Below, piece after piece: positions 1,749-64,000 of a DNA stretch of 64,000 nt. The stretch spans positions 1,357 to 65,356 of the forward strand of contig CACKGC010000004.1 in assembly GCA_902599655.1 (NCBI GenBank). The letters are read 5' to 3'. The notes beneath the pieces are model-generated. The model searched no databases, had not been told where the DNA came from, and saw nothing but the letters and a program-made list of their open reading frames with translations. This DNA comes from an uncultured Fidelibacterota bacterium. GTDB lineage: Bacteria; Fidelibacterota; Marinisomatia; Marinisomatales; Marinisomataceae. A program made the position numbers and the translations under genes. Position 1 is the stretch's first letter; each line of letters starts with the position of its first letter.

Positions 1749-1750
1749 AA

Positions 1751-2959: not shown

Positions 2960-3022
2960 GATCAAAATATTATTACTAAAAAAATAATTTATTTTTATCT
3001 ATTTGTTTTATCTTTAATAATA

Positions 3023-3730
3023 ATGAATCCATGTTCAAATCATAATACATTAAGTATTGGCCATCGAGGAGCAAAAGGATATGTTGCAGAAAACACCTAC
3101 GAATCTATAAGCAAAGCAATTATGTTGGGTGTTGATGGTATTGAAATAGATGTTTTTAAATGCGCAAGTGGCGAACTGGTATTATTTCATGACAAGAATC
3201 TGAAAGAATTAACTGGTGAATCAGGTTTAATAGAAAATTTAACTATTAAAGAGCTTGAACAATTTTTAGTTCTAGGAAAATATAAAATTCCCACATTAAC
3301 AGATGTTTTAACAAGAATTGAGAAGCCACTTTTTGTAAACATAGAACTAAAAGGATTAAATACAGCACAAGCCACATCTAAAATTATTGCAGATATATCT
3401 ACAAGCACTTCATGGAGCTTAGAACACTTTATTGTTTCAAGTTTTAATTGGGATGAGCTTGAACAATTTAGATCCATAGATAAAAATACTCCAGTGGGAG
3501 TACTAGTAAGTAAGTCGATGAGTATAAATGAAGCTATTGAATTTGGTAAAAAAATTAATGCGCAGGCTATACATCCTAATTTTAAACTACTTAATGACAA
3601 AACCGTTAAAAAAATTAAAAATAATGGTTTTAAAATTTATACTTGGACTGTGAATAATGAAGATGATATTAATTTTATGAAAAGATTGAAAGTGGATGGA
3701 ATTATATCAGATTATCCTGATAGAATTTAA
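3023..3730 (+). CDS. Glycerophosphodiester phosphodiesterase (GDPD family)
   Basis: 235 aa. GDPD motif HRGAKGYVAENTYESISKAIMLGVDGIEIDV and the C-terminal GIISDYPD. Confidence 0.85.
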   Translation: MNPCSNHNTLSIGHRGAKGYVAENTYESISKAIMLGVDGIEIDVFKCASGELVLFHDKNLKELTGESGLIENLTIKELEQFLVLGKYKIPTLTDVLTRIEKPLFVNIELKGLNTAQATSKIIADISTSTSWSLEHFIVSSFNWDELEQFRSIDKNTPVGVLVSKSMSINEAIEFGKKINAQAIHPNFKLLNDKTVKKIKNNGFKIYTWTVNNEDDINFMKRLKVDGIISDYPDRI

Positions 3731-3732
3731 AG

Positions 3733-4077
3733 TGGAGGCGGGGAGATTCGAACTCCCGTCCAAAGTAGAGAAAAAGTAGACATCTACATGTTTAGTTTCT
3801 TGATCAAATTTCACTATATGACTGTACAAGAACAAACAGGTATATAGCAATCTTCTAAAGGTTCACTTATTTAACCGAAGCAGGAAAATAGGCTATCTCA
3901 TTTTTATGACACCATTCAGCGAACGATGAGAAACGTCTACTGATGATGGGCTTTAGCAATTAAGCGAAAGCCATTTGGCCATTATCGGCACTTAATATAG
4001 GTTAGAAGTTTTAAGAGGTACTAAGCTCTACATGCAATCTAAGATTCCATTCTAAAATGTCGAAACCGGTCGCCCCC
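3733..4077 (-). ncRNA. ssrA: tmRNA (SsrA), ~345 nt
   Basis: Minus strand begins GGGGGCGACCGGTTTCGACA and ends GGACGGGAGTTCGAATCTCCCCGCCTCCA (tRNA-Ala-like acceptor with G3:U and a T-arm). Internal tag frame GCC GAT AAT GGC CAA ATG GCT TTC GCT TAA gives ADNGQMAFA*. The 3' CCA is not fully encoded (genomic ...TCCACT). Confidence 0.9.
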
Positions 4078-4120
4078 AATTGTCAAATAGTACCGAAGAT
4101 ACAATATATTTTTGAAACAA

Positions 4121-4154
4121 AAAAGGCTCTGCAGCGCCAACCCCAGAGCCTTTT
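4121..4154 (-). terminator. Intrinsic-terminator-like hairpin, best formed on the minus strand, directly upstream of ssrA
   Basis: GGCTCTG-N12-CAGAGCC, extendable by A/T flanks. On the minus strand it is followed by TTTTTTGTTT; on the plus strand only by TTTT. No annotated minus-strand gene lies upstream of it. Confidence 0.4.
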
Positions 4155-4322
4155 CGATTGCTTGTATTTGCTTACAATAATCTAATTTTAGACTCCCTCA
4201 AACTAATATTAATTTTAACAATTGGTCAATATTTTTTATTTCAAATTTGAAAAAAATTTTAAAAAATGACTTTTTAAGAGTATTAATTTAAATTTTCATA
4301 GCTTATATTTTAGCCTAGTTTT

Positions 4323-4394
4323 GCCTCCGTAGCTCAATGGTAGAGCAGGGGCCTTTTAAGCCCTTGGTTGTAGGTTCGAGTCCTTCCGGGGGTA
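4323..4394 (+). tRNA. tRNA-Lys (anticodon UUU)
   Basis: GCCTCCGTAGCTCAATGGTAGAGCAGGGGCCTTTTAAGCCCTTGGTTGTAGGTTCGAGTCCTTCCGGGGGTA folds as a cloverleaf. Features: D-arm GCTC/GAGC, anticodon loop CTTTTAA, T-loop GGTTCGAGTCC. CCA is not encoded. Confidence 0.85.
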
Positions 4395-4420
4395 CTATTT
4401 TTGAGAAATACCTCTTAATT

Positions 4421-7240
4421 ATGTCTGAATTTCACAATAAACATATCGGTCCTTCTCCGAAAGAAATCGAAGAAATGTTGCAATATCTTGATTGCAACAG
4501 TCTCAATGATCTTCTTGACAAGATTGTGCCTAAAAATATTCTTGATATAGATGACATGTCCATTGGAAATGAAGTATTCTCAGAAAATGATATTTTAAAG
4601 CACGTTAAAAATATTGGTACTAATAATAAAGTTCATAGATCTTTAATTGGCCAAGGGTATTATGATACCATTACTCCAAACGTTATTTTAAGAAATATAC
4701 TTGAGAATCCAGGCTGGTATACACAGTATACCCCATATCAACCTGAAATCTCACAAGGTAGATTGGAAGCTCTTTTAAATTATCAAACAATGATTACTCA
4801 AATTACTGCTTTACCAATTGCTAATGCATCCCTTTTAGATGAAGGAACTGCAGCTAGTGAAGCGATGTTAATGCTTTATCGCAAAAATAAATCTGAAAAA
4901 ACGCAATTTTTAGTTGATAGAGAATGTTTTCAACAAACTATAGACGTCATTATTTCAAGAGCTGAGCCATTAAATATTGAAATCATTGTAACAGACTTTA
5001 ACAATTTTGATTTTACCAATGCTTTTGGTTGTATTGTCCAATATCCAAATAAATATGGACACATCTCATCAGACGACGATTATAAACGCATCGTATCTGA
5101 TGCACATAATTCAAATTGTAAGGTCATCTTTGCGAGCGATTTAATGTGCCTCCAGCTTTTTGAAGCTCCGGGTAGTTTAGGAGCTGACATAGCTGTTGGT
5201 AATAGTCAACGATTTGGTGTACCACTTGGCTACGGCGGACCTCATGCGGCATTTATGTCTACAAGCGAAGAATTTAAAAGAGATATCCCAGGAAGAATTG
5301 TTGGCGTATCGCAAGACCGTAGGGGAAATCAAGCTTATAGACTTACACTCCAAACCAGGGAACAGCACATTAGAAGAGAAAAAGCAACATCAAATATTTG
5401 TACAGCTCAAGTATTGCTTGCTATCATTTCAGGAATGTATGCATTATTTCATGGTCCAGAAGATTTAAAAAATATTGCAAGAAGAATTCATAGTCATACA
5501 AAAGAACTTGCTGATAAAATTGCAAAGCTAGGTCATGAGATTGTAACTAATGATAATTCATTTTTTGATACAATAGTAATCAAATTATCGAACATGAGTA
5601 TAGATAGTTTAAAAGATAGGGCGTTAAAGCATAATTTTAATTTAATGTATCACGATAATGGACTTATTGGTATCTCTTTAGATGAGAAAACAGATTTTGG
5701 TGAAGTTGAGGTGCTTGCAAATCTCTTTGATGTGCATAATGATGCTAAAAATTCTTATAATATTTTTAAACCAAATAGAGCAGGAGATATCTTAACTCAT
5801 CCTATTTTTCATAGCATTAATTCTGAAACAGAAATGCTTAGATATATCAATAAGTTAGAAAAAAGAGATCTTTCCTTGAACTATAGTATGATACCATTAG
5901 GGTCTTGTACTATGAAACTGAATGCGACTGTTGAAATGATTCCAATTAGTTGGCCAGAATTCAATTCTATCCACCCTTTTGCACCATTAGGTCAGGCTAA
6001 GGGTTATGAAAAAATCATTAATGAGCTAGAGGAAATGCTATATAAAGTTACTGGATTTGATGCCGTATCATTTCAACCAAATTCTGGTGCTCAAGGAGAG
6101 TATGCTGGATTATTAAGCATTAGAGAATATCATAAAGCAAATAATTCAAAAAGAGATATTTGTCTAATACCTGAATCAGCCCATGGGACAAATCCTGCAA
6201 GTGCAATAATGGCTGGACTTAAAGTTGTGATAGTAAAATGTGATGACCATGGAAATATAGATTTTAAAGATTTAAGCGCAAAAGTTGATGAGGCTAGTGA
6301 CAGGTTGTCATCATTAATGGTTACTTACCCCTCAACCCATGGTGTATTTGAACATAACATTGATGAAATATGTAATTTAATTCACGAAAATGGTGGCTTA
6401 GTCTACATGGATGGAGCCAACTTGAACGCCATGGTTGGTGTATGTAAACCAGGTAAATTTGGAGCTGATGTTATGCACATTAATCTTCATAAAACTTTTT
6501 GTATACCGCATGGTGGAGGGGGTCCAGGTATGGGTCCAATTTGTGTGAATGAAAAATTAAAGCCACATCTTCCAAAACATAGTTTCACTGATGAAGATTT
6601 TTCTTACTCTGTATCGTCATCACCATTTGGTAGCGCAAGTATTCTATTAATTTCTTATATCTACATGAAATTAATGGCAGCAAACGGTTTATTAAAAGCA
6701 TCTCAAGTTGCAATTTTATCTGCCAACTATATGGCTAAGAGACTTGAAAATGATTATAGCATTCTATATCGCGGTAAGAGTGGATTAAATGCGCATGAGT
6801 TCATTGTTGATTGTAGATCATTTAAATCCACTGCGAATATTACTAATGAAGATATTGCTAAAAGATTAATTGATTATGGGTTTCATGCTCCTACTATGTC
6901 TTGGCCTATTCCGGGAACACTAATGATTGAACCAACCGAGAGCGAAACAAAATCTGAACTTGACAAATTTTGCGATGCTATGATTGCAATTAAAAAAGAA
7001 ATTATTGAAATAGAATCAGGTCAAATGCCTCAAGAAGACAATGTTTTAGTTAATGCTCCACATACTGTACACGATATTTGCGATGATTGGAATCACCCTT
7101 ATTCAAAAGAAAGTGCGGTTTTCCCTACCCAATGGAATAAAGAAAATAAGTTTTGGCCACATGTTTCTAGAATAGATAATGCCTTTGGGGATAGAAATTT
7201 TTTCTGTGTATGTCCGGACATAGATTCTTATAAAGAATAA
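4421..7240 (+). CDS. gcvP: Glycine dehydrogenase (decarboxylating), single-chain P protein of the glycine cleavage system
   Basis: 939 aa from MSEFHNKHIGP. PLP-lysine region HINLHKTFCIPHGGGGPGMGPI. The tracked ORF start at 4337 lies inside the tRNA-Lys gene, so I chose the ATG at 4421. Confidence 0.93.
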   Translation: MSEFHNKHIGPSPKEIEEMLQYLDCNSLNDLLDKIVPKNILDIDDMSIGNEVFSENDILKHVKNIGTNNKVHRSLIGQGYYDTITPNVILRNILENPGWYTQYTPYQPEISQGRLEALLNYQTMITQITALPIANASLLDEGTAASEAMLMLYRKNKSEKTQFLVDRECFQQTIDVIISRAEPLNIEIIVTDFNNFDFTNAFGCIVQYPNKYGHISSDDDYKRIVSDAHNSNCKVIFASDLMCLQLFEAPGSLGADIAVGNSQRFGVPLGYGGPHAAFMSTSEEFKRDIPGRIVGVSQDRRGNQAYRLTLQTREQHIRREKATSNICTAQVLLAIISGMYALFHGPEDLKNIARRIHSHTKELADKIAKLGHEIVTNDNSFFDTIVIKLSNMSIDSLKDRALKHNFNLMYHDNGLIGISLDEKTDFGEVEVLANLFDVHNDAKNSYNIFKPNRAGDILTHPIFHSINSETEMLRYINKLEKRDLSLNYSMIPLGSCTMKLNATVEMIPISWPEFNSIHPFAPLGQAKGYEKIINELEEMLYKVTGFDAVSFQPNSGAQGEYAGLLSIREYHKANNSKRDICLIPESAHGTNPASAIMAGLKVVIVKCDDHGNIDFKDLSAKVDEASDRLSSLMVTYPSTHGVFEHNIDEICNLIHENGGLVYMDGANLNAMVGVCKPGKFGADVMHINLHKTFCIPHGGGGPGMGPICVNEKLKPHLPKHSFTDEDFSYSVSSSPFGSASILLISYIYMKLMAANGLLKASQVAILSANYMAKRLENDYSILYRGKSGLNAHEFIVDCRSFKSTANITNEDIAKRLIDYGFHAPTMSWPIPGTLMIEPTESETKSELDKFCDAMIAIKKEIIEIESGQMPQEDNVLVNAPHTVHDICDDWNHPYSKESAVFPTQWNKENKFWPHVSRIDNAFGDRNFFCVCPDIDSYKE

Positions 7241-7245
7241 AAATT

Positions 7246-10200
7246 CTATTTAAAATATTCTTGAAGTGCTTTCACGCTAATTTTGTTCAAATGTTTCATA
7301 GAATCAATAGCGGCTCTTGCCCCTGGGAGCGTAGTAATAGTTAAAATATTTTTCATGACTGACGTCTTTCCAATCGCTTCTTCATCAAATCTTGATTGTG
7401 GCCCTTCAGGTGTATTAATCACTAATTGAATATTATCATTTAAAATTTCATCAACAACATTCGGTCTTCCTTCACCGACTTTAAACATATCATCGCACAA
7501 AATACCTTGTTCATTGAGAAACCTACATGTACCCTTTGTAGCGACAAGGTTAAAGCCTAAACCCATTAAGTTTTTTGCTATTGGAACAAGGCCTGTCCTA
7601 TCTGTTTTATTAACTGATAAAAAAGCTGTGCCTTGTTTGGGAACATTATACCCATCTGACTTCATCGCTTTTAAGAAAGCACTACCTGTGCTCATATCAA
7701 TACCCATTACCTCCCCAGTAGATTTCATTTCAGGGCCTAAAAAGACTTTTTCATCTTTAAATTTTTTAAATGGTAAAACTGCTTTCTTTACAGCATAATG
7801 TTCAAAATTATTTTCTTTCAATTTGAAATCATTTAATGATTTGCCAACTGAAATTTGCGCAGCTATATTTGCCAATGGAACGTTGCTATATTTACTGACA
7901 AAAGGCACTGTACGGCTCGATCTTGGGTTTACCTCTAGAACATATACCTTATCATCTTTTACAGCAAATTGAAGGTTAATTAAACCTACCACTTTAAGCT
8001 CAAGTGCTAATTTGGCTGTAATAGTTTCAATTTCTTTTTTAACGGCATCACTTACTTCGTATGGGGGAATAACACATGAAGAATCTCCAGAATGAACTCC
8101 AGCTTCTTCAATATGTTGCATAATTCCTCCAATAAAAACTTCTTCTCCATCGCAAAGCGCATCCACATCAAACTCAAATGCATTTTCAATAAATTGATCA
8201 ATTAAAATTGGGTGATCACTTGTGGCTTCAGCAGATCTAAATACGTAATCCACCAACTGCTCTTTAGAATAAACAATTTGCATTGCTCTACCACCCAATA
8301 CAAAACTTGGTCTTACTAATACAGGGAAGTTAGCAGTTTCAGCATAACTATAAATGTCATCATAATTTTTGGCTATACAATACTCAGGAGTTAATATGTT
8401 TAGTTTATCAATTACCTTAGCAAATTCTTCTCTGTTTTCAGCAAGATTAATACTGTCGGATGATGTACCATATATTTTGACTCCAGCTGAGGCAAGTTGG
8501 TTAGCAATTTTTAATGGTGTTTGTCCTCCAAATTGCACTAATACGCCATCTGGCTTTTCAAAATTGATAATATTCATAATATCTTCGAATGTTATTGGTT
8601 CAAAATAAAGTCTATCAGCTAAATCAAAATCAGTTGAGACAGTTTCTGGATTGCAATTGACCATTATTGATTTATAGCCAGCTTCTCTCAAACCAAACAC
8701 CGCTTGTACACAACAATAATCAAATTCAATACCTTGACCAATCCTATTTGGCCCACCTCCTAAAATCATAATTTTTTTACCTTCAAGAGGTTGTAAATCA
8801 TTTTCTGATTCATATGTGGAATATGAATAAGGGGTTTCAGCTTCAAATTCCCCAGCACAAGTGTCTACTAATTTATAGACCGGTTTAATCCCTTGATCAA
8901 TTCTCATTTGCTGTACTTCATCTTCGGATAAATTGTTTAAGCGAGCTATTTGTAAATCCGAAAATCCATTCTTTTTTAAAAATTTTAAATTCTCTATTGA
9001 AGAAGACTCTTTTTCAATATTAACTATTTCTTGTATTTCTGTTAAGAACCATGGATCTATACCAGTATTTTTATGAATTTCTTCAATTGAAAATTCCTGC
9101 TTAATAGCTTCTTTGACTTTTAACATCCTAAATGCACTACCATCATTTAAAGATTTAATATCTAGCTCTCTAAATCTTTTAATATCTAAATCTTCATCTC
9201 GCGGATCTTTTGTTTCAAATCCTGGTAAATTAAGCTCTAGAGAGCGGAAAGCTTTTTGAAATGATTCCCGAAATGTCCTTCCAATAGCCATCGCTTCCCC
9301 AACAGACTGCATTTGTACGCCAAGTTTTCCAGAAGCTGATGAAAATTTTTCAAAATCAAATCTTGGCAGTTTTGTCACTATATAATCAATTGTAGGTTCA
9401 AAAGCCGCTAATGTCCTGTTGGTTATATCATTTTTTAATTCATCTAAAGAATATCCAACCGCGAGTTTAGCCGCAATTTTTGCTATAGGAAATCCTGTTG
9501 CTTTGGATGCTAGCGCAGAAGACCTACTCACTCTCGGATTCATTTCAATGATTACCATTCTTCCATCAACTGGGTTAACAGCGAATTGAACATTTGAACC
9601 TCCAGTATCCACACCTATTTTTCTAATACATTTTATAGCTGCATTTCGCATTAACTGAAACTCTTTATCGCTTAATGTCATTGCGGGTGCTATTGTAATA
9701 GAATCGCCAGTATGTATACCCATTGGATCAATATTTTCAATTGAGCAAATGATAATAACATTATCATTTAAGTCTCGTATGAGTTCTAATTCATATTCTT
9801 TCCAACCATTTAAGTATTCCTCAACAAGAACTTGGCCGGTAGGGCTTTCTTTCAAACCTTTATTTACTGATGCTTCAAATTCTTCTTCATTGTATGCAAC
9901 AGAACCGCCTGAACCACCTAAAGTAAATGAAGGTCTGATAATAGCAGGTAAGGAGATTTTATTTAATAATTTTTTAGCCTCATCTAACGATTTAACAGTA
10001 TATCCGTATGGTAAATCAAGACCAATTTCTAACATTGCCTGCTTAAACATTTCTCTGCTTTCAGCAGTTTCAATTGCTTTCCTGTTAGCCCCAATGAGTT
10101 CAACATTATACTTTTTTAGAATTCCTTCTTCATCTAGCTTCATGGCAACATTTAAAGCTGTTTGTCCCCCAACTGTAGGCAAAATAGCGTCAGGTTTTTC

Positions 10201-38150: not shown

Positions 38151-38174
38151 AAAGGGCTCATTTCTGAGCCCTTT
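38151..38174. terminator. Bidirectional hairpin terminator between convergent genes
   Basis: AAAGGGCTCA-TTTC-TGAGCCCTTT, between the M23 stop (38141) and the barrel-gene stop (38208). The arms are identical to those of the hairpin at 29856-29883. Confidence 0.7.
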
Positions 38175-38207
38175 AACTATTTCATTTTCTAAACTATGTG
38201 AACAGTT

Positions 38208-39263
38208 TTAGAAATCAAATGTAACCTGCATAGTACTATGATCATCAAAGTACTCGTTTGCAGTTCTCATAGCGTATGAAACATGCATCATGTAGTCACC
38301 TACAGGAACAGATACTCCAGCACCCATTGATAGGCCCCAGAATGTTCCACTCCATTCATCCCAGTCAGCATCTGAAAGACCGGTTGGCTTCTCATCGTCG
38401 CCAATAGTCATTGTAGTTGCTGCACCAAACCATGATGAACCTAACACATATTTAGCTCCAAGAGCCATTGTGTTGGTTTGGTATGAGTGATTAGTGAAAG
38501 TTGCACTTACATCTAAATTGTTCAATAAAGAGTAAGTAGCAGAAAGATCTAGACTTGTTGGTAACGCGAAGTTATCAGCAACTATTCTAAATGTTTCTGA
38601 TGATGATCCTGACTCAGAATCTACTGGCACCATGTCCATATCTAAGTTAATACCATCATAATGCATTCTACTTCCAACATTTTTCATTGCTACACCAAAT
38701 GTTAATGGTTGGTTTGGAAAACGATATTGTACACCAACATCCAATGCCATACCTGTAGCAGTTGTTTCTTCAATAGTTTCAGAAACTAATTTCCCTGCAA
38801 AACCAACATTTACACGATCAGAAAATGCTCGTGCAAATCCAGCAGTTGCGGTGAAGAAACTTGGGGAGAATGTTTGTCCGTCACCTTCAGGTGCGAAAGC
38901 AGTAGTTTTTGGAATGTCACCAAAATCTAAAGATTTGATTGTCATACCAAATGTTCCTGTTTCTCCCATTGCTACAACCATTCCTGCATACATTACGTCA
39001 ATGTCAGCAATATATGAGGTGGTTGAAACTGTTCCTTGTATCCCAGAGTTGTGTCTAGCTAGACCAGCAACATTAGTAAATAATGCGTCTACTCCAGCTA
39101 CTGTACCAACGTTTGTTCCGCTTAGTGCAACTGTTTCAGTACCGACTGGAATTAGTAGCTGTGAGGCACCAGCAGTACCTTGTGATCTTACTGTACCAGC
39201 GGTTAATGCTGAAACTAACACTGCGCATCCAAGGAAGATTTTAAATGTATTTTTCATTTTCAT
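38208..39263 (-). CDS. Outer-membrane beta-barrel, PorV/FadL-like
   Basis: 351 aa. Signal peptide, then N-terminal signature GASQLLIPVGTETVALSGTNVGTVAGVDALFTNVAGLA, which fits the PorV/PorQ and FadL pattern G.a..l......a.a.gg......d....NPAGLA. Alternating beta-strand pattern and an OMP terminus (...QVTFDF). Confidence 0.6.
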   Translation of the reverse strand: MKMKNTFKIFLGCAVLVSALTAGTVRSQGTAGASQLLIPVGTETVALSGTNVGTVAGVDALFTNVAGLARHNSGIQGTVSTTSYIADIDVMYAGMVVAMGETGTFGMTIKSLDFGDIPKTTAFAPEGDGQTFSPSFFTATAGFARAFSDRVNVGFAGKLVSETIEETTATGMALDVGVQYRFPNQPLTFGVAMKNVGSRMHYDGINLDMDMVPVDSESGSSSETFRIVADNFALPTSLDLSATYSLLNNLDVSATFTNHSYQTNTMALGAKYVLGSSWFGAATTMTIGDDEKPTGLSDADWDEWSGTFWGLSMGAGVSVPVGDYMMHVSYAMRTANEYFDDHSTMQVTFDF

Positions 39264-39275
39264 ATTCTCCTTATC

Positions 39276-42200
39276 CTAGTAAACGTCGAGACGTTGTTCT
39301 GGTTGAATTACAGCTAACTTAAGGATTTTATCTCCTCTGTTAGTCTCTACGTGCGCTACGTACATTCCACTAGCAACTGGAAGCTCGAAGTTGTTCTTCA
39401 TGTCCCAATATGTATGCTGTGAACCTGTATCGTTATGCTTAATTGTTCTTACTAGAGTACCGTCTAGAGCAAAGATTCTAATTGTTGCAGGACCTTCTGT
39501 TGGAAGGTGACTGAACATAACTCTTCTATCTAGAGCATCTCTTTCTTCAGGATTATATCCATAATATGGATTTGGCCATACAGTGATTCTGTCTGGGTCA
39601 TAATCGTTTGAAACCATTTCTAAACCAGCTGTTGAGAAGGTAAATGTATCAGCTGAAGAATTTGGTTTACTCATTTCCCAAACGACAGAACTAGCTGTTG
39701 AATAGCCACTACCCCATGCTGCGTGTCCAGCTTGTGTAGGTAGCACATTAGACCCTAAGTAGTCAGTGAATAATGTTGCTGTCATGTATGGATATGTAAT
39801 CGCTGCACCACTTGTTGTTGTGGCGTCAGATCCACCGAAAGCCCAACCAACACCACCAGATGTAATTAAATCATCATCTGCGATGTACTGTGCTTCTTTA
39901 CTTGGATCATATGGAGTAGCAACCATACCTACAAAGCAGTAGATTGGCTCCCATGCTGGCGCACCATAAACTGGTCCTGCCCAATCTCCATTAGCAAAAC
40001 TACCTTCATAGTCTAGGTCACGGTCATAATCCCAGTATCCTGCATACATTTGCTCTTTTTGACCAGTAGCAAAATTATGTCTGTATGCAGAGAAAGGAAC
40101 ATAACTGTTCACCCACTCATAAATGTAGTCCCATCCAAGCGATGGAGTACTAAAGTCAAGTTCTACATCGTCTGACTCCCAATAGTTAAACCTATCAAAG
40201 TCACGATTGTAAGGAGCTGAATAGTGTAAACCAGCTCTATTTTCAATAATATAACCTGTACGACCTAAACTAGCCCATGGTACATATGAAACCGCAGGGT
40301 CTCTTAATACACCATTTTCTTTCCAGCCGTGGTCCCACTCACTTACAGATAATAGATCTTCTTGAGGTCCATTAACCTGTACTTGGAAACCGTGTACAAC
40401 CGGAGTACCACCAGGTCCAACTTCTAAACCAGTAGCAGTATTAACACCACCAACAACAGGGTTGTTAGATACTAATACTTCACCAGTAGTTACGTTGGTT
40501 AGTGTCCAGTTAACAGCTACTGTTCCATCAGGCATCACATCATCAAAAGTAACAGAATAATCATCTCCTGTTAATTGTGAAGGATCTACAACAACCATAT
40601 CCACAGAACCCTGTGAAGGACCGTCGTGTGCTGCTGATACAACGTCACCAGCAGAAGCAGTTGCGTCACCTGCTGACATTGTGTTTGGAACTTCAGGTCT
40701 TACAGTTAAAAATATTGGACTACTTTCCAAAGTCTTTGGAATACCGTCCGCATTATAACCGTATGCTGTAACAGCATAGTAATATGCTCTGTTTGTAATC
40801 AGTTTTGAATTACCATTTAATCCATCTGTAGTAATTGAGTGGAATTGTGATAATCCGCTGTCTGAACCAAACTGTGTTCTAATATTAATATTCTCACCAA
40901 GCTCAGCATTAAATACGGTATCATAAATTTCAGTAACACCATTTACAATGTCGTATGTAGCCAATCTTTTCTTCGCACCAGCACCAGATGCAGTTTCATA
41001 TTGATACACATTGTAACCTTCAAACACAAAGCTTGTTGGGTTACCGTTTGCATCAAGATCAACTTCACTAGTTGCTACGTAATCTTCAGCTGTATCATCC
41101 CAAACCAAAATAACTTGGTCTGCAAACGCGCTAGCTGTTACGTTTGGTGAAGGTGGAGAGTCTGGCAATGCAAAGTCAATGTCATATGCTGTTTGAGCAA
41201 GAGCATCAACTTCTTTTAAATATGCCACAGATGATAAAGCGTCACCACCGGCTGCGTGGAAAATACCAAACACAACCTCTTGTGAGTCGCCTGCTGCCAT
41301 AGTAAATGGACCAACACTCATTAGGAAACGTCTGTCAGCAGATGCTGCATAGTTACCATCAATAGGGTTAGCCGTACTGTGACCCGCAGAATCATTTGGA
41401 TCCCCATAGAAACAGAATCTCTGATTATATAGGTCTCCAGCGATTTCAACTGGGTAAGCACTACCATCTTTTCTTAAACCTTGTAAGTAAAAATACCCTT
41501 CTGTTTCGTCAGACGGGTCAGTGTAAGTCGCATCACCATTAATGTAGAATGCGAAAGATGACATTTTAAGGTTTTTCATACCTGGATGACGAGTACCAAA
41601 CATTTTAGCACCCTCAGTTGGACAAACCTCTTCTGAGTCGCCATCTTCACAAGGAACCATTGGTCCTTGGAAGAAGTCATATCCAGCAGCAGGAGTTCCA
41701 ATATCTAATGTAGAGTACTGTGAGTCGTCTCCGTCATTCCATACATATCCCATACCTAATGCAACGTCACAACCAACAAAGTCGTCACCAGCATATCCTA
41801 AGTCGGGGTCTGACCATAGTCCCATATATGTGTCAACTAGGTCATCATCACCTTTATTGATAACAAGCTGTTTTAAAAACACCATGTCACCAAAAACGTC
41901 AGGTCTGTCAAATCCAAACATAGTTGTTTGAATTTCTACATTCATAGGAGATGTACCAAAATTAAGTTTATACGCAGGGTCACCATCGTTACTTACGAAC
42001 CAAAGTACTTGGTCACCTAAGAACTCAGGATGGTCTGTACCACCTGGAAGTGGAGTATAAACCCCATCTCCATCTACATCAACCCAAGGAGCACCAAACT
42101 CTACTGGCCACTCTTGGAAGTCAGCAAAGTCTAAAGGTGAAGCAAGCATGCTTTTTTCTACTTTGTAGATTCTGTGAACCGCAGCAAGCGGATCACCACC

Positions 42201-42539
42201 CCATGGACCAGGACCCATATCTTGTGTATAATCTCCAACGATTGTTCGAATTGAACCGTTCACTGTTGCTCCCATCCACAATGCAGATTGGAAGATTGAG
42301 TGAACACCTGTGCCTTTTGGCCATTCTAGCGCTGAATCACCAGAAACGTGATAATCCAGGAAGAGACCATTGTTAGCTACATCGGCATAGATTTTGTTCC
42401 CATCGAACGTACCAGTGGAATCCACAAGGTTAGATGAGCTGCTGAAGTTTGAAATATTTTTATCTCTCGCCTCAAGAACAGTAGAAACTGACAGCAACAT
42501 CACCATTGTGAATACGGTAATATTCTTTAAGATTTTCAT
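39276..42539 (-). CDS. Large secreted protein of unknown function with a T9SS type-A C-terminal sorting domain
   Basis: 1087 aa. Signal peptide MKILKNITVFTMVMLLSVSTVLEA. D/G/W/Y-rich body with no catalytic motif I recognise. The C-terminal ~90 aa (VWPNPYY...ATIRIFALDGTLVRTIKH...LPVASGMYVAHVETNRGDKILKLAVIQ) fit the Por_Secre_tail pattern. Confidence 0.7.
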   Translation of the reverse strand: MKILKNITVFTMVMLLSVSTVLEARDKNISNFSSSSNLVDSTGTFDGNKIYADVANNGLFLDYHVSGDSALEWPKGTGVHSIFQSALWMGATVNGSIRTIVGDYTQDMGPGPWGGDPLAAVHRIYKVEKSMLASPLDFADFQEWPVEFGAPWVDVDGDGVYTPLPGGTDHPEFLGDQVLWFVSNDGDPAYKLNFGTSPMNVEIQTTMFGFDRPDVFGDMVFLKQLVINKGDDDLVDTYMGLWSDPDLGYAGDDFVGCDVALGMGYVWNDGDDSQYSTLDIGTPAAGYDFFQGPMVPCEDGDSEEVCPTEGAKMFGTRHPGMKNLKMSSFAFYINGDATYTDPSDETEGYFYLQGLRKDGSAYPVEIAGDLYNQRFCFYGDPNDSAGHSTANPIDGNYAASADRRFLMSVGPFTMAAGDSQEVVFGIFHAAGGDALSSVAYLKEVDALAQTAYDIDFALPDSPPSPNVTASAFADQVILVWDDTAEDYVATSEVDLDANGNPTSFVFEGYNVYQYETASGAGAKKRLATYDIVNGVTEIYDTVFNAELGENINIRTQFGSDSGLSQFHSITTDGLNGNSKLITNRAYYYAVTAYGYNADGIPKTLESSPIFLTVRPEVPNTMSAGDATASAGDVVSAAHDGPSQGSVDMVVVDPSQLTGDDYSVTFDDVMPDGTVAVNWTLTNVTTGEVLVSNNPVVGGVNTATGLEVGPGGTPVVHGFQVQVNGPQEDLLSVSEWDHGWKENGVLRDPAVSYVPWASLGRTGYIIENRAGLHYSAPYNRDFDRFNYWESDDVELDFSTPSLGWDYIYEWVNSYVPFSAYRHNFATGQKEQMYAGYWDYDRDLDYEGSFANGDWAGPVYGAPAWEPIYCFVGMVATPYDPSKEAQYIADDDLITSGGVGWAFGGSDATTTSGAAITYPYMTATLFTDYLGSNVLPTQAGHAAWGSGYSTASSVVWEMSKPNSSADTFTFSTAGLEMVSNDYDPDRITVWPNPYYGYNPEERDALDRRVMFSHLPTEGPATIRIFALDGTLVRTIKHNDTGSQHTYWDMKNNFELPVASGMYVAHVETNRGDKILKLAVIQPEQRLDVY

Positions 42540-42565
42540 ATCTACCTCTTTACCTTCTTATTTAA

Positions 42566-45500
42566 TTAAAAACTAATGTTTAAACCAACCCTTACAGTGC
42601 GTGGTCTGTTCCATCTACCAGGAAACGCTAAGTTATCCTCGTACATAGCTGCCGCATCAACATCAGGATTGACAGATAATCTATTGGCAAGCCATTGCTG
42701 CCCACTTTCAGTAGCAACCCAGCCGTCTTCAGCTACGTTACCAGTACCATGATAAACATCATTTACCTGCTCTGAATCTAGCGCATTGAATACAGATATA
42801 TATGCGTTGGCAGTTAAGCCGCCTAAGCTAATAGCTCTATCAACACGAAGGTCTAGATTAGAGTATGCAGGTAATGTACCTGAGTTTACTGGTCCTTCTG
42901 GGAACTCCCAGCGATTCTCAAAAACTGTACTATAGATTTGAGATGGTGTGTAGCGAGTACCACTACCAAAGCTCATAACAGCATTAAATCCTGTGTTTGC
43001 TAAAGCACCTGTAGCATCAGGAGATCTCCAGTCAAGGATTACGTTTGCAGTGTGAGTTTGGTCATAGTCTAATAAGTTCATCGCTTTTGGATAACCATCA
43101 TCTGTACCAATCCAAGTAATGTAGAAGTTCTGTCCACCATATGAACCAGTACCTCTAGCTTCTGAGTAAGTATAGTTAGCTTGTGCGTACAAACCTCTAG
43201 TTCTGCGCATTTCAAAGTTTGTTGTCAAACCTTGAGATACCATAACGTCACCGTTTTGATATTGTGCCCAGTTTTGCTGAGTATCAGCACCACCAGTGTT
43301 GGTGAACGCATCTGTACGATTAGCTAACGTTAAGTAGTCTTTACTTTCTTTATAGAATCCTTCAACCTTTAATGAAGCAAATGCTCCGATACGTTGCTCA
43401 ATACCAATTTCGTACTGAGTTGATCTTTCAGGTTTTAATGCAGGATTCTCAGATGCAGTAGCATTACCAGCTAAGATGTCAGCTGATAGCTGTGAATCTG
43501 AAAGATATAAATAAGACATAGGTACTGATTGCCAGTGTGTACCATAGTTCGCACGGAATACTGTACGATCAGACACTGGGAATGAAACACCTATTCTAGG
43601 GTGAGTAGCGGTTTCTTTTTGTACTTTTTTCCATACGTAGTTACCGTTACCGTCACCGTTTCTGTTTACACGTTGTCTGTTAAAGTATAGGTTGTTAAAC
43701 CCGTCAGAGTCTCCATATCCGTCACCATCTGAGTCAGGAGCCATTGCACCTGTGTCAATAGTTTCAAATGAAAGACCTAACTGAACAACTACATCTTTAA
43801 ACTCAAGTTTGTCTTGAACGTAGAAACGTGATTGTGTTGGTTCTGCTGGAGCTAACATATGATCATCTTGATTATATGTACCGTTCCACTCATCACCATA
43901 AATATTGTATCCTAGATTTGTAACATACAATGATCTATAGTTAATAAATCTCCAGTCTGCTGGATCACTTCCTGCTGCAATAATTTCTTCGTTTGTTGCC
44001 ACTCCATCGAAGTTAGCATCAACCTGAGAAATTGCTCTTGCAACACCAGACGCGCTTAAGCCGTATCTAGTGATTTCATGGTTATCTATAGAAGCACCTA
44101 GTTTAAACTCGTTATAACCAATTTGGTTTGTGTAGTCAAAACTAATAGTGTTTGTTGTTGTTTTTCTAGTATCAAAAGATGTGTACTGTGATCCATAACC
44201 TACTACACCAAAAAATTCGTCTGGTGAAAGCGGGTTAAATCCTGTACCGTCTCTTTTATAATAGTTTGGAGAGCCAAAAGTTTTGGTTCTTCTACCATAT
44301 GCTTCAATATCGTTTAAGTAGTTCTCATTACCTGAAGTAGTTTCATATGTCTGTTGTGACAATGAAGCTTTAATATAAGATAATGGACTAATTGTATATC
44401 TAGCATTTAAATATCCCATAGTGAAATCTGACTCATTAATAAATGAACCGTCTGTTCCACCGTATACTCTACTCCAACTATAGCTATGTCCTTCATAGTC
44501 ATATGCCTGAGTACCGAGTTTTAAACGTAAAGGACCAAAGTCCATGGTCATATTACCATTGATGGTAATTCTTTCATTATCATCTTGTGGTTGTTGACCA
44601 TACATACGTCTATAATTACTGTAAACAACATAAGTGGTATCATAAGCAGCGACGCCCGCAGCTAATAATGCTGGGTCTGTCTGATTGTCTCTAATTACAG
44701 TTTCAATGTGATGAATTTTGTTTCCGCTTTCATCGGTTCCATACGCTAAGCCATCTGTTCCATCGCTGTAATAGTCAGCTGGTGGAGCATCTGTCATAGG
44801 CGTAGCATCCATCATTGGATAATAACTGTAAGAAACGTCTCCGCCTTTTTCTCTACTTTCAACAGATAAGTACACTTTAATGTTATCGCTAATTGGACCA
44901 CCAAAATCGAAGTTTACATTTTGGTATCCGTCTGTATAAAGCTTGTCAGGATCTGTACTTGGGTCTGCACCTAAAGAAGTTTCTACACCAACTCTAGAAG
45001 ACCAATCAGATCCACCAGTTTTAGTAGTGATGTTTACGATACCACCATTAGCACCACCATATTCTGCAGAGAAACCACCAGTTTGAACTGAAATTTCTTG
45101 CAGGGCTGCTTGTGAGTTACCGTTTAGAAGGTTTCCACCGCCATAAACATCTTTTACTGGAACACCGTCAACATAGTAACGACTGTCTCCACTTCTACTT
45201 CCACGGAAATATCCATTAACAACACCTGTTTGTAGGTTCACAATATTGCTAACCCCTCTAACAGCAAATGCATCAATCAACTCTTTGTCGACAACACGAG
45301 TTGTGTTAGTAGCATTCGGGTTAATTAATGGTCTTTCTCTAGTTACTGTAACTGCCTGACCGGCTACAGCTGCAACATCAAGGTTAAAGTCAACAGTGGT
45401 TGTAAAACCAACTGAAGTTCTAACTCCTGCCTCTACAACAGTAGTGTAACCAATATACTCGGCTCTTAGGTCATAAGTACCTACAGGAACGTCAAGAATA

Positions 45501-45682
45501 TAGTATCTACCTAATTCATCGGTAGCTGCACCAAGGTTTGATCCTTCAACCACAACGTTTGCTCCAACTAATGGATTACCATCAGCATCTGCTACAACCC
45601 CTGCCAATTTCGCAGTTGTTGATTGTGCAAACATCATTGTTGGTAGGAGAACTAGTGCAATTAACATACGTAGTTTTCTCAT
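42566..45682 (-). CDS. TonB-dependent outer-membrane receptor (SusC/RagA-like, with a CarboxypepD_reg N-domain)
   Basis: Start chosen at MRKLRMLIALVLLPTMMFAQ, which has a GGAGGT SD 8 nt upstream. CarboxypepD_reg-like AKLAGVVADADGNPLVGANVVVEG..YDLRAEYIGY, plug (YVDGVPV, GGFSAEYGGANGGIVNITTKTGG), a long barrel, and terminal ...VGLNISF. Confidence 0.85.
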   Translation of the reverse strand: MRKLRMLIALVLLPTMMFAQSTTAKLAGVVADADGNPLVGANVVVEGSNLGAATDELGRYYILDVPVGTYDLRAEYIGYTTVVEAGVRTSVGFTTTVDFNLDVAAVAGQAVTVTRERPLINPNATNTTRVVDKELIDAFAVRGVSNIVNLQTGVVNGYFRGSRSGDSRYYVDGVPVKDVYGGGNLLNGNSQAALQEISVQTGGFSAEYGGANGGIVNITTKTGGSDWSSRVGVETSLGADPSTDPDKLYTDGYQNVNFDFGGPISDNIKVYLSVESREKGGDVSYSYYPMMDATPMTDAPPADYYSDGTDGLAYGTDESGNKIHHIETVIRDNQTDPALLAAGVAAYDTTYVVYSNYRRMYGQQPQDDNERITINGNMTMDFGPLRLKLGTQAYDYEGHSYSWSRVYGGTDGSFINESDFTMGYLNARYTISPLSYIKASLSQQTYETTSGNENYLNDIEAYGRRTKTFGSPNYYKRDGTGFNPLSPDEFFGVVGYGSQYTSFDTRKTTTNTISFDYTNQIGYNEFKLGASIDNHEITRYGLSASGVARAISQVDANFDGVATNEEIIAAGSDPADWRFINYRSLYVTNLGYNIYGDEWNGTYNQDDHMLAPAEPTQSRFYVQDKLEFKDVVVQLGLSFETIDTGAMAPDSDGDGYGDSDGFNNLYFNRQRVNRNGDGNGNYVWKKVQKETATHPRIGVSFPVSDRTVFRANYGTHWQSVPMSYLYLSDSQLSADILAGNATASENPALKPERSTQYEIGIEQRIGAFASLKVEGFYKESKDYLTLANRTDAFTNTGGADTQQNWAQYQNGDVMVSQGLTTNFEMRRTRGLYAQANYTYSEARGTGSYGGQNFYITWIGTDDGYPKAMNLLDYDQTHTANVILDWRSPDATGALANTGFNAVMSFGSGTRYTPSQIYSTVFENRWEFPEGPVNSGTLPAYSNLDLRVDRAISLGGLTANAYISVFNALDSEQVNDVYHGTGNVAEDGWVATESGQQWLANRLSVNPDVDAAAMYEDNLAFPGRWNRPRTVRVGLNISF

Positions 45683-45929
45683 TATTCTACCTCCAAATGA
45701 GTATTTATATACAAATTTTTGTTTATTATTTATTGTCATTTTTTATTCTTACCCTATTATATATATGTGTAAAAAGCTACAATATATACACAGCCTCCAA
45801 AGGGTTCGTGCCCTTTCAGAAGCTAATTTCACCTAAATTGATGATTGTTTCCGTAGATGTCAATACATTTTTTGTACTTTTTTTTTGGTTCTCGTCGAGA
45901 AAAAACAGTTTTATCGACGGAGAGCGGTG

Positions 45930-47171
45930 TTAGGGGTGTGTATTATAAATTACTTGATTATTATAAGTGTCGTTGTTCTTGATGTTGAACGGCTGGCCTT
46001 TTAAAGAATAATTAAAAAAATCCAATACAGTTTTATCCATAACTTGATCCACTATTTTTTTGTCAACCTCTCCAAGACTGTCTAGCGGTAAAGCAAACGG
46101 TGCATTTTGATTATATATTAATTTCATATCTGTGTATGAGTAGTGTAAACTGTTTTTAATATATACTCCATAGCTTTCTTTATTGGTCGCTAAAATTGTA
46201 TTATAAATATCAAAATTTCTTTTTCCATCTTTTGAGAAGTTGATGTCTCCCTCAATGTCTTTATCAAGAAACTGTTCTTGTCCTATGTGCAAAAATGGTT
46301 TTTTTGTATTTGTTTGTGCGTCTTCATTTAGCAGTCCAAAAAACCAACCATCAAGAGCAACTCCTGCTTTGACTTCACTATTTTTGAGCATTGCAATGTA
46401 GGTTGTTCCGCCCCCCATTGAATGTCCCATTGCTCCCACGTTTTCAAAATCAATGTTGTTTTTAAATGGATTTACAGAGCCGTCATTTAGATTGTTTTGT
46501 TTTAACGTTTGTAATAAAAAGGCTAGATCTTGATACCTATAATTAATAAGAAGGTTGGTATAATATTTTTTATGGTATTGTGCTTGTTCGTTCCAGCTTA
46601 CGTTTTGTTTATATGGAATAGGGTTACCATCTTTATCAAATGTAATGCTTGCATTATAAGTGTGGTTACAGGCAATTACTATATATCCGTTACTTACCAG
46701 CTCTTCAACTTGAGATGTGTTTTGGGTTAAAAGCCCTCCGTCTCCATGTGAAAAAAGGATTAATGGGAATTTTTCATTTTGAATTGGAGAAAGCCCAAAA
46801 ACGCTGTTTGAAACTAGTTGGGTTCCATGGTTCCCAAAGCTTGCGGGCAAACCGGCTGTTTTTGCAATACTAGAAATTGATTTTTTTGGAAAAGTAACAT
46901 GTGGCGCTCTTTGATAGTTTTCTCCCCCTTCTGCAGGATACCATATTTGAACCATGAGCTCCCTGTAATCTGTGGGATCGGTGGTATAAACCTCACCTCT
47001 AGAGCTGTCTGTCCAAAAGTATACCTGTGTTCCAATATTATATTTTCCTTTTGGTGGATCAATAGACTCAAGGGGGACTAGCACGGAACCGACTACAGCA
47101 CACCCTTGCAGCGCCGCACAAACAAAAAATATGAATATTTTTAAAGTATTCTTTTGGTATAAAAAACTCAC
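45930..47171 (-). CDS. Alpha/beta hydrolase lipoprotein, platelet-activating-factor acetylhydrolase-like lipase/esterase
   Basis: Lipobox AALQGC. PLILFSHGDGGLLTQNTSQVEELVSNGYIVIACNH resembles the PAF-AH family. Nucleophile elbow GHSMGG. Confidence 0.65.
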   Translation of the reverse strand: MSFLYQKNTLKIFIFFVCAALQGCAVVGSVLVPLESIDPPKGKYNIGTQVYFWTDSSRGEVYTTDPTDYRELMVQIWYPAEGGENYQRAPHVTFPKKSISSIAKTAGLPASFGNHGTQLVSNSVFGLSPIQNEKFPLILFSHGDGGLLTQNTSQVEELVSNGYIVIACNHTYNASITFDKDGNPIPYKQNVSWNEQAQYHKKYYTNLLINYRYQDLAFLLQTLKQNNLNDGSVNPFKNNIDFENVGAMGHSMGGGTTYIAMLKNSEVKAGVALDGWFFGLLNEDAQTNTKKPFLHIGQEQFLDKDIEGDINFSKDGKRNFDIYNTILATNKESYGVYIKNSLHYSYTDMKLIYNQNAPFALPLDSLGEVDKKIVDQVMDKTVLDFFNYSLKGQPFNIKNNDTYNNQVIYNTHP

Positions 47172-62998: not shown

Positions 62999-63442
62999 TT
63001 AAAAAGGCAGGTCGTCGTCTTCTACTGTTTGATCTAGGTTCTCTTTTTTTACGGGCTCCTGGTTCATTCCGGACGAGGAATCAAGACTGTTTTCTCCTCC
63101 GCCCAAAATTTGGACACCGCCATAATTGTTAGCAACAACGCCTGTTGAATATCTTTCGTTTCCTTCTTTGTCTTGCCACTTGTCTGTCTTCAAAGATCCC
63201 TCTATATAAACCAAGGTTCCTTTTTTTACATATGGTTGAACATATTTTTCTGCGGTTGAGCCAAACACGGTTACCTTTGTCCACTCTGTTCTTTCTTGCG
63301 TTTCGCCGTCTTTGCTTTTCCACGACTCGTTTGTGGCAACGCTAAAACTGGCTACAGCCGCACCGTCTCCGGTAAACCTTATTTCAGGATCTTGTCCAAG
63401 CCTGCCTATTAGTGTTACTTTGTTTACTGTTCCCTTTGCCAT
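62999..63442 (-). CDS. ssb: Single-stranded DNA-binding protein
   Basis: 147 aa. OB fold (VNKVTLIGRLGQDPEIRF), a Gly-rich linker and an acidic tip DDDLPF. Confidence 0.95.
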   Translation of the reverse strand: MAKGTVNKVTLIGRLGQDPEIRFTGDGAAVASFSVATNESWKSKDGETQERTEWTKVTVFGSTAEKYVQPYVKKGTLVYIEGSLKTDKWQDKEGNERYSTGVVANNYGGVQILGGGENSLDSSSGMNQEPVKKENLDQTVEDDDLPF

Positions 63443-63452
63443 TTTTTTTCCT

Positions 63453-64000
63453 TTAACTAAGATTTAGTTCGTTATAAATAATATCTACTCTTCTTTTAAA
63501 TTTATCGTCATTTTTTAATAGTTCTGAGACCTTTTTATGTGCGTGCATAATTGTTGTGTGGTCTCTTCCCCCTAGGTGTACCCCTATTTCGCTCAAAGGC
63601 ATGTCTAAAACCTCTCTCGCCAAATATGCTGCAACCTGTCTTGCCTCTGCAATGTTTTTTCTTCTAGACTGGCCCACCATTTCTTCTTGGGAAACAGAAA
63701 AAATGCTACAAACTCCGCTGACAACATCCTGCATATTAACCTGTCCGTACCCCTGGTCTCCGAGCCTTTCCCTTATTATAGACTCTACAAGCGCTTCATT
63801 AATTTTGTCTCCAGAAAGGGTGGCGTGTGCAAATATTTTTGTTACACAGCTTTCTAGGTCTCTTATATTTGTCCTAACGTGTGATGCTATCTTTTCTAGG
63901 TGGCTTCCTTCAATTTTCATATTATTTTGTTTGGCTTTTGTTGAGAGTATGGCAACCCTTGTTTCAAAGTCTGGTGGTTGAATATCTGCATGAAGCCCAG
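63453..64000 (-). CDS. dnaA: Chromosomal replication initiator DnaA, C-terminal part (domain III end plus domain IV); the gene continues past the right edge
   Basis: The frame stays open to position 64000 (GLHADIQPPDFETRVAILSTKAKQNNMKIEG...). Domain IV DNA-binding motif LGGRDHTTIMHAHKKV. Confidence 0.9.
   Translation of the reverse strand, partial: GLHADIQPPDFETRVAILSTKAKQNNMKIEGSHLEKIASHVRTNIRDLESCVTKIFAHATLSGDKINEALVESIIRERLGDQGYGQVNMQDVVSGVCSIFSVSQEEMVGQSRRKNIAEARQVAAYLAREVLDMPLSEIGVHLGGRDHTTIMHAHKKVSELLKNDDKFKRRVDIIYNELNLS

Follow-up and report, generated by a model that had tools for sequence, protein, structure and literature searches.

In Porphyromonas gingivalis, the large surface proteins PorZ and PorU, which carry a C-terminal domain (CTD) of the kind used by a type IX secretion system (T9SS), are anchored through the outer-membrane barrels PorQ and PorV (PMC12365241), and substrate CTDs bind extracellular loops of their carrier in the translocon (PMC10994853). 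Type-B cargo, of which SprB of Flavobacterium johnsoniae with its barrel SprF is an example, is exported and anchored by cognate PorP/SprF-like carriers that are encoded adjacent to it (PMC12618676, PMC9143113). In the Bacteroidota barrel assembly (BAM) complex, which includes BamA, the FadL-like BamG and the surface lipoprotein BamH, a FadL-family barrel can pack on a larger barrel, with its loops holding a surface protein (PMC12578637). The present analysis concerns a stretch of 64,000 nucleotides (the window) from an uncultured Fidelibacterota bacterium (assembly GCA_902599655.1, contig CACKGC010000004.1, positions 1,357 to 65,356) and, within it, three tightly linked genes for a TonB-dependent receptor, a large secreted protein and a small barrel, hereafter called the trio. 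The most informative result is the apparent pairing of a PorZ/PorU-like CTD, borne by the large protein, with a PorQ-like barrel encoded directly after it. With moderate confidence, we favour a reading in which the barrel permanently anchors the large protein by its CTD, as PorQ does PorZ, and in which the large protein serves the receptor in the capture of substrate.

The gene order of porU and porV, a large CTD protein followed by a barrel, is mirrored by the trio. The likeness to PorQ-PorZ and PorV-PorU lies in the association of a large surface protein bearing a T9SS-type CTD with a barrel of the PorV/PorQ family; the trio differs in having a body without the beta-propellers of PorZ or the C25 peptidase domain of PorU, in the TonB-dependent receptor within its operon and in its host, a member of the Marinimicrobia (SAR406). 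SprB-SprF also has a dedicated carrier and anchor barrel encoded beside its cargo, whereas the trio has a type-A-like CTD (TIGR04183), a barrel of the PorV/PorQ rather than the PorP/SprF family, and a receptor gene. In SusC/SusD and RagA/RagB, as in the trio, the gene for a CarboxypepD_reg-type TonB barrel directly precedes that for a surface-exposed partner, and the proposed likeness is that the partner captures and the barrel imports; the partner in the trio, however, has no SusD domain, is no lipoprotein, would be anchored by its CTD on a separate barrel and is accompanied by a third gene. Oar of Myxococcus xanthus, a TonB-dependent transporter that PopC secretion requires, resembles the receptor in its CarboxypepD_reg domain, plug and barrel, a likeness of architecture only, and has not been reported with CTD cargo or a PorQ-like barrel, unlike the trio. 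The BAM complex offers a precedent for a 14-strand FadL-family barrel beside a larger barrel, likened to the trio by structure and not by homology, and differs in its barrel assembly function and its lipoprotein partners. Each kind of component in the trio is therefore already known, but no description of the fixed combination of an Oar-type receptor, a PorQ-like barrel and an unannotated family whose CTD is PorZ-like, or of its prevalence in SAR406, was found in the full-text literature, for which coverage was incomplete.

C-terminal domain and small barrel

The last domain of the large protein appears to be a T9SS-type CTD, and it is recognised most readily across the family. Of 27 family CTDs, 26 match Por_Secre_tail (TIGR04183 / PF18962) at E<=0.01 (best 9e-8), all 27 match the PorZ model over its CTD portion (best 8e-13) and 19 match PorU. 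Comparison of the family profile with the PDB returned the CTDs of PorZ and PorU only (PorZ CTD E=0.06), and a Foldseek search with the full structural model gave PorZ (5m11) as the top match, driven by the CTD at a template modelling (TM) score of 0.10-0.14, with a PorU entry also among the top matches. On TIGR04183, the whole large protein of the window scored 17.5 bits, under the cutoff of 23, and its isolated last 110 residues scored 23.7 bits, just reaching it. The "clear" type-A CTD of the initial annotation thus stands at the level of the family but says too much for the single sequence. Orthology of the large protein to PorZ or PorU was rejected, since the CTD alone matches: on the PorZ model NF052228, for which the cutoff is 260 bits, scores reached just 13.6-18 bits and only the CTD (model positions 697-754) was matched, not the full length with its two beta-propellers.

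The CTD carries the motifs PNPY…TIRIF.L.G..V…W.…N…PVASG.Y…K.LK, followed by an extra tail of 8-9 residues that is conserved, has Tyr or Phe at its end and is absent from ordinary type-A CTDs. Variants of this tail include QPEQRLDVY (the large protein of the window, 39279-39305), QRNQVVQYY and IPEERLRQY, and two paralogues without an adjacent barrel, in metagenome locus L080, are also without the last six tail residues. Of all the domains of the protein the CTD is the best conserved, with 45% identity between distant members and the window protein, compared with 38% for the N-terminal domain (N-domain) and 16% for the variable region. Between strains, it remains 96-97% identical where residues 450-1000 of the large protein fall to 45-70%.

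The small barrel, PorQ-like and of a 14-strand family, scores 116.8 bits on the PorV/PorQ family model NF033709, above the cutoff of 90, and is nearer to PorQ (NF033711, 82.5 bits against a cutoff of 220) than to PorV (NF033710, 40.1 against 250); both equivalog cutoffs are failed, and the likeness to PorQ is one of degree and not of membership. All 24 barrel orthologues match NF033709 (best 5e-54) and are likewise nearer to PorQ than to PorV, and the barrel family profile finds F. johnsoniae PorV in the PDB (6h3i_F, E=1.3e-16). The barrel had initially been read as being of the PorV/FadL kind, which its passing of the family cutoff bears out, and as the anchor of the large protein, an idea that gains support from the PorZ/PorU-like CTD, the PorQ-nearer barrel and the position of the CTD as the most conserved domain. 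The combination of such a CTD with such a barrel, taken with the carrier precedents described above, is the reason for proposing that the large protein may have in the barrel its own carrier, to which it would stay anchored permanently.

TonB-dependent receptor

The three parts that had been assigned to the receptor all pass their Pfam cutoffs, namely a CarboxypepD_reg domain at residues 45-132 (PF13620 62.8 bits, PF13715 53.8 bits), a plug (PF07715 27.6 bits, cutoff 23.9) and a TonB barrel of the 22-strand type (PF00593 73.7 bits, cutoff 27). Plug and barrel, both exceeding their cutoffs, identify a generic TonB-dependent receptor, and the CarboxypepD_reg extension ahead of the plug gives it the architecture of the Oar subclass (as defined in PMC6434023). 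The SusC-like identity proposed at first could not be upheld. On TIGR04056 (SusC/RagA) the receptor scored 34.6 bits against a cutoff of 368.25, with a match to the N-terminal domain alone, and this score rules out membership of the SusC/RagA family. The receptor family profile found generic relatives only in the PDB (the Cir plug, the PhuR barrel and the N-terminal domain of RagA). A stretch reading AVTVT after the N-terminal domain resembles a TonB box and, together with the plug and the TonB-dependent barrel, would fit import as the direction of transport. Between strains, patches of the receptor at residues ~351-400 and ~551-600, which may be extracellular, drop to 76-78% identity.

Conservation of the trio

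Relatives in metagenomes were collected with a single degenerate peptide pattern, by which at least 549 were found and 80 loci kept; the position of the receptor was counted in the 72 loci with room for it and that of the barrel in the 61 with enough flank. By an automatic rule, the receptor gene lies directly upstream of the large protein gene in 71 of 72 loci, and on inspection it does so in the remaining locus (L084) too, while the barrel gene lies directly downstream in 59 of 61. The trio is also kept in all 24 genome loci, as far as the contigs extend. The same order of receptor, large protein and ~350-residue barrel, with all three orthologous, is found around homologues at 30-41% identity, and the identities of large protein, receptor and barrel move in step (e.g. 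43/44/47% and 33/30/36%). The initial annotation had named conservation of the three neighbours in related genomes as a check, and this conservation extends to about 30% identity. Such near-universal linkage, with co-divergence of the receptor, suggests that the displayed protein serves the receptor. Among departures from the trio, that in L073 is due to a truncated contig. The only clear exception among the 80 loci is L080, in which three tandem large-protein paralogues (1-7600) have no receptor or barrel between them.

Close relatives of the large protein in species-representative genomes are nearly all from Marinimicrobia/Neomarinimicrobiota/Fidelibacterota (SAR406) and have the same flanking genes. 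The locus had at first been framed in terms of Bacteroidota, a framing that does not fit a Marinimicrobia/SAR406 genome; the two groups belong to one superphylum. Flanks of the Marinimicrobia type (M23 peptidase, aroQ, mgtE) are found at many distant loci, and others have quite different neighbours, such as a SusC/SusD-like pair in L025 or a GWxTD-domain gene in five loci; restriction of the trio to a single lineage is therefore unlikely. The suggestion that the large protein takes the place of SusD is not supported by L025, where the SusC/SusD-like pair adjoins the trio instead.

Further genes were observed around the trio in particular loci. The GWxTD-domain gene lies directly after the barrel gene and on the same strand in L029, L082, L094, L096 and L103. 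A prolyl oligopeptidase (S9) gene is present downstream in three related loci (L076, L088, L098), and a PTR2-type peptide transporter gene upstream in one (the JGI contig of P0191). Three contigs titled as metagenome-assembled genomes of Nitrosomonadales, Hyphomicrobiales and Cryomorphaceae (L011, L014 and L024, respectively) carry the trio with full Marinimicrobia synteny, with flanking genes in L024 up to 99% identical to those of the window, and are probably mis-binned.

Exchange of the trio between strains

Close relatives of the window (L001-L003, L012, L013 and L020) were compared with it across the trio and its flanks. Against L012 and L020, nucleotide identity is 93-97% in the flanks and 61-90% in the trio, whereas against L001 and L003 it is 70-85% in the flanks and 88-98% in the trio. 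The encoded proteins follow the same pattern, those of L012 and L020 being 95-99% identical in the flanks, 94% for the receptor, 90-91% for the barrel and only 73-74% for the large protein, and those of L001-L003 being 46-91% identical in the flanks (mostly 80-90%) and 93-98% in the trio. The boundaries are sharp, at ~45.9 kb and ~38.2 kb (38200-45950), and match the positions of the terminator and the promoter region. The three genes differ between strains as one unit, and comparison of these sequences indicates a cassette that is exchanged between lineages, a pattern that fits co-adapted partners with diversifying pressure on their exposed parts.

Allelic replacement of a cassette is also seen at surface-antigen loci, and would suit a large protein that is an abundant, antigenically variable surface coat or adhesin on a PorQ-like barrel, with a receptor that is co-expressed merely because the outer membrane needs both in large amounts. 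The hypervariable middle of the protein combined with a conserved anchor, its immunoglobulin/FN3-like beta-sandwich arrays, the S-layer proteins among its Foldseek matches, its cadherin-repeat relatives and the tandem paralogues without a receptor in L080 are all in keeping with such a coat. Nevertheless, co-expression fails to explain why the receptor is retained down to 30% identity and diverges together with the large protein. In addition, the most conserved part other than the anchor, an N-domain of 420 residues in which certain acidic residues are invariant, is no repeated module of a lattice, and the TM-scores to S-layer proteins are ~0.1. A coat or adhesin function is thus considered unlikely.

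Body of the large protein

The large protein matches no Pfam family and the source names retrieved for it and its relatives are all "hypothetical protein". The family is very large, comprising 6936 clusters (50% identity) at E<=1e-3, or 1789 when the threshold is tightened to E<=1e-30, and the best 150 family representatives mostly match via the N-terminal ~700 residues. The richness in Asp, Gly, Trp and Tyr described initially is real, since all four (9.6, 9.9, 2.2 and 5.6%, respectively) exceed their values in the flanking genes (6.5, 6.6, 1.0 and 3.8%). No Pfam domain of SusD was found in the large protein and its signal peptide has no lipobox cysteine, so receptor and large protein do not form a SusC/SusD-type pair.

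A sequence search of the PDB with each of the three single proteins gave no match. The AlphaFold2 (AF2) model of the large protein, built from a 66-sequence alignment, is all-beta and multi-domain, with a predicted local distance difference test score (pLDDT) of 87.9 and a predicted TM-score (pTM) of 0.77, and the N-domain modelled alone reaches a pLDDT of 96.3. The best matches of the N-domain in a Foldseek search of the PDB have TM-scores of only 0.3-0.42 and are non-catalytic N-terminal beta-sandwiches of dextran dextrinase and of glycoside hydrolase family (GH) 94 and GH116 enzymes. On the model, therefore, the N-domain appears to have no close solved relative, and nothing marks it as an enzyme. 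Its invariant residues D244, G248, D253 and D272 lie in an acidic WxDPDLG..DD.VGCD stretch; across the family as a whole, invariant positions hold Asp, Gly, Pro, Trp, Asn and Lys, and none holds Cys, His or Ser. The N-domain is probably a ligand- or partner-binding module, and the all-beta fold, the types of invariant residue and the lack of a match to any catalytic family in Pfam and NCBIfam suggest that the body of the large protein binds rather than catalyses.

The first ~300 residues of the N-domain also open longer proteins of 1263-2107 residues (P0146, P0141, P0149, P0183). In P0146 (L026 5776-12099) this N-terminal module is followed by cadherin/Big_9/PKD repeats, and the gene lies beside one for another giant repeat protein. 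Fusions such as P0146 suggest that the N-domain is a portable binding module.

The same acidic stretch raises the question of whether the N-domain might be a hydrolase or lyase of a new kind, in which the invariant aspartates, perhaps together with Ca2+, would serve to cut a polymer at the cell surface into fragments that would enter via the receptor, the anchoring of the protein being unchanged. D244, D253 and D272 are invariant, the only structural neighbours, though remote, are domains of carbohydrate-active enzymes, and T9SS-displayed enzymes beside TonB receptors are common in the polysaccharide utilisation loci of Bacteroidota. The GH94, GH116 and GH15-type matches are, however, non-catalytic sandwiches with the low TM-scores given above, no catalytic family is matched in the databases searched, and the acidic motif, as far as its residues tell, suggests a metal-binding loop rather than a catalytic pair. 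We consider an enzymatic N-domain unlikely.

Proposed route and its difficulties

If the barrel is indeed the anchor of the large protein and the large protein a helper of the receptor, the route that we infer is as follows. The large protein would cross the inner membrane via Sec and would be taken across the outer membrane by the type IX pathway, with the adjacently encoded barrel as its dedicated carrier. The CTD would not be removed, and would stay on the extracellular loops of the barrel in the manner of PorZ on PorQ and of type-B cargo on PorP/SprF-like carriers, so that the large protein would be on permanent display at the cell surface, next to or above the TonB-dependent receptor. The acidic beta-sandwich of the N-domain may then capture, and possibly trim, a high-molecular-weight organic substrate, which the large protein would pass to the receptor for TonB-powered import. 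It would thereby be a functional analogue of SusD and of surface glycan-binding proteins, although unrelated to them. Peptides and glycans are candidate substrates, and the prolyl oligopeptidase and PTR2 transporter genes found near some loci hint faintly at peptides. The variable middle domains would form the exposed face of the protein, with a rapid divergence that probably stems from phage or grazer pressure.

Several points weigh against this route. None of the T9SS core genes (SprA/Sov, PorK/L/M/N, PorU, PorT, PorW) was found among the scanned genes of the window, several reviews describe T9SS as confined to Bacteroidota, and the PorV/PorQ family is also found in bacteria without T9SS. 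The whole large protein remains under the TIGR04183 cutoff, and the barrel is under the cutoffs for PorQ and PorV proper. Contact among the three proteins is itself inferred, no ligand site is recognisable in the N-domain, for which a catalytic use of the invariant aspartates is possible, and the hints of a substrate are limited to one or two lineages. Furthermore, the tight linkage of the receptor would be equally predicted by an export role for the receptor.

In the case of export, the receptor would secrete the large protein, as Oar does in conjunction with PopC, and the PorQ-like barrel would hold the CTD, with no T9SS core and with import not the main function. The Oar architecture of the receptor accords with this, and a strict linkage of three genes over deep divergence is to be expected of a dedicated exporter, its cargo and its anchor; the scanned genes of the window include no T9SS core gene. 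A search of the full-text literature, incomplete in coverage, also found no published description of T9SS in Marinimicrobia and no paper reporting its core there. The Oar architecture is, however, generic, occurring in 28% of TonB-dependent transporters, most of which are presumed to be importers (PMC6434023), and both the CTD and the barrel of the trio are of kinds that T9SS uses. Many other Por-CTD proteins are reported from SAR406 genomes (PMC5596340), implying a general T9SS. Moreover, there is no precedent for the passage of a 115-kDa protein, folded or unfolded, through a plugged 22-strand barrel, PopC being much smaller. Export through the receptor is accordingly regarded as improbable. 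Little credence is likewise given to the idea that the trio is an autonomous machine, in which the TonB-energised receptor would translocate the CTD protein and the barrel would take it up and keep it, and which would be related to T9SS export and attachment as a minimal or ancestral form, in a phylum without a described T9SS; if it were, TonB-dependent barrels would export large proteins widely in nature.

Upstream region and base composition

The region upstream of the receptor gene is kept in nine relatives despite flanks that differ by 20-30%, and is probably the promoter with a 5' untranslated region (UTR) of ~145 nt. Within it, TTGACA at 45858-45863 is conserved among relatives of the trio locus; the TATAAT that had been noted initially lies instead in or beside the end of the upstream gene. 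A stem-loop (45791-45825) begins ~30 nt after TTGACA and is followed by a second, AT-rich hairpin (45758-45790), and the conserved leader elements AGGGTAAG and AAAATTTGT, with GGAGG, precede the receptor start. The fold z-score is -2.7, and 6 of 20 predicted pairs still pair after both sides have changed, the stem-loop at 45791-45825 showing compensatory changes among relatives. The hairpins may stabilise or regulate the mRNA. A riboswitch was sought upstream of the receptor gene as a clue to the substrate, and no Rfam family matched, either at the gathering threshold or with the limit relaxed to E<=1.

The trio has a GC content of 0.40-0.42, compared with ~0.31-0.35 to its left, and uses C-ending NNY codons at 0.42-0.45, compared with 0.25 +/- 0.09 in the other genes of the window, i.e. 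~2 standard deviations above. Both the higher GC content and the excess of C-ending codons had been noticed by eye, and both of the causes put forward for them appear to contribute. The rise in GC is confined to codon positions 1 and 2 (0.47-0.49 against ~0.39), with an ordinary GC content at the third position (GC3), and therefore reflects an amino-acid composition rich in Gly, Ala and Asp; a horizontal origin was rejected as its cause on the same ground. The bias towards C-ending codons would fit translational selection. At the deep chlorophyll maximum, TonB receptors of Marinisoma belong to the abundant transcripts (PMC13096325), and TonB transporters of Marinimicrobia have been detected in Atlantic metaproteomes (PMC5776962), in neither case with the specific gene identified. 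Such general reports of abundant receptors, together with the codon bias, suggest that expression of the trio may be very high.

Gene layout and surroundings

The positions of the genes, of the regulatory elements and of the domains of the large protein are listed in Table 1. The trio is tightly spaced, with one promoter-like region upstream and one terminator, and each gap between its genes contains a Shine-Dalgarno-like motif. The gap from the receptor gene to the large protein gene is exactly 26 nt (…TAA ttaaataagaaggtaaagaggtagat ATG) and that from the large protein gene to the barrel gene exactly 12 nt (…TAG gataaggagaat ATG). The start codon listed for the receptor lies directly 3' of GGAGG and a typical signal peptide, MRKLRMLIALVLLPTMMFAQ, begins there, so this start, and hence the listed length, is the most likely one. 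The terminator consists of AAAGGGCTCA-GAAA-TGAGCCCTTT, with a 10-bp GC-rich stem and then a T-run on the minus strand. Gap lengths, co-orientation, receptor length and a strong terminator had all been reported in the initial annotation and agree with these observations.

Table 1. Positions of the trio, its regulatory elements and the domains of the large protein (nucleotide positions in the window; residues numbered in the large protein)
Feature	Residues	Position	Strand	Description
TonB-dependent receptor gene		42566..45682	-	1038 aa from ATG 45682; open reading frame open to 45739
Large protein gene		39276..42539	-	1087 aa; secreted, acidic, all-beta; unannotated family
Small barrel gene		38208..39263	-	351 aa; PorV/PorQ (FadL-like) family outer-membrane barrel
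Hairpin terminator		38151..38174	.	Common to the trio and to the M23 peptidase gene that converges on it
Conserved upstream region		45683..45863	-	Probable promoter and 5' UTR, kept among relatives
Signal peptide	1-24
N-domain	40-465	41145..42422	-	Conserved beta-sandwich; AF2 pLDDT 96.3
FN3-like domain	466-620
Beta-sandwich	621-745
Variable region	746-985
CTD	986-1087	39279..39584	-	Predicted T9SS type-A-like beta-sandwich, nearest to the CTDs of PorZ and PorU

The other scanned genes of the window are all housekeeping genes (among them argS, gcvP, carAB, ligA, dnaE, prfA, rho, eno, proS, mgtE, the pur operon, ssb and a dnaA fragment), the 3' fragment of dnaA and ssb being located at 62999-63920. 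Directly upstream of the trio, at 45930-47171 (-), is a gene for a PAF-acetylhydrolase/PETase-like alpha/beta hydrolase, which keeps its place in nearly all close genome relatives (L009 is rearranged) and is separated from the trio by a hairpin and the conserved promoter region. The cumulative GC skew is lowest near 46-47 kb, which is also the place of a change in gene orientation, with the PAF-acetylhydrolase-like gene on the minus strand and purA on the plus strand; no enrichment of DnaA boxes was found in a search for a cluster near this turn. GC3 is ~0.17-0.28 in genes to the left of the trio and ~0.27-0.40 in those to its right. A transfer-messenger RNA (tmRNA) gene at 3730-4077 (-) and a tRNA gene at 4323-4394 (+) are also present. 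Since the tRNA gene runs into the opening codons of the gcvP reading frame as called mechanically (4337-7240), the true start of gcvP probably lies further downstream.

Implications

In the ocean interior, SAR406/Marinimicrobia rank with the most abundant groups of uncultured bacteria, and their TonB-dependent receptors are among the most abundant of their reported transcripts and proteins. The trio, which is conserved, codon-biased and hypervariable on parts that probably face the surface, is a concrete candidate for the feeding machinery of these bacteria. Replacement of the cassette marks the locus as a likely target of phages or grazers and bears on models of marine bacterial diversity. 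If the large protein is anchored on the barrel and serves the receptor as proposed, the partner recruited by a TonB-dependent importer would not have to be SusD-like or a lipoprotein, and the PorZ-PorQ manner of anchoring a CTD on a barrel would be reusable, outside Bacteroidota, for mounting accessory proteins near a transporter.

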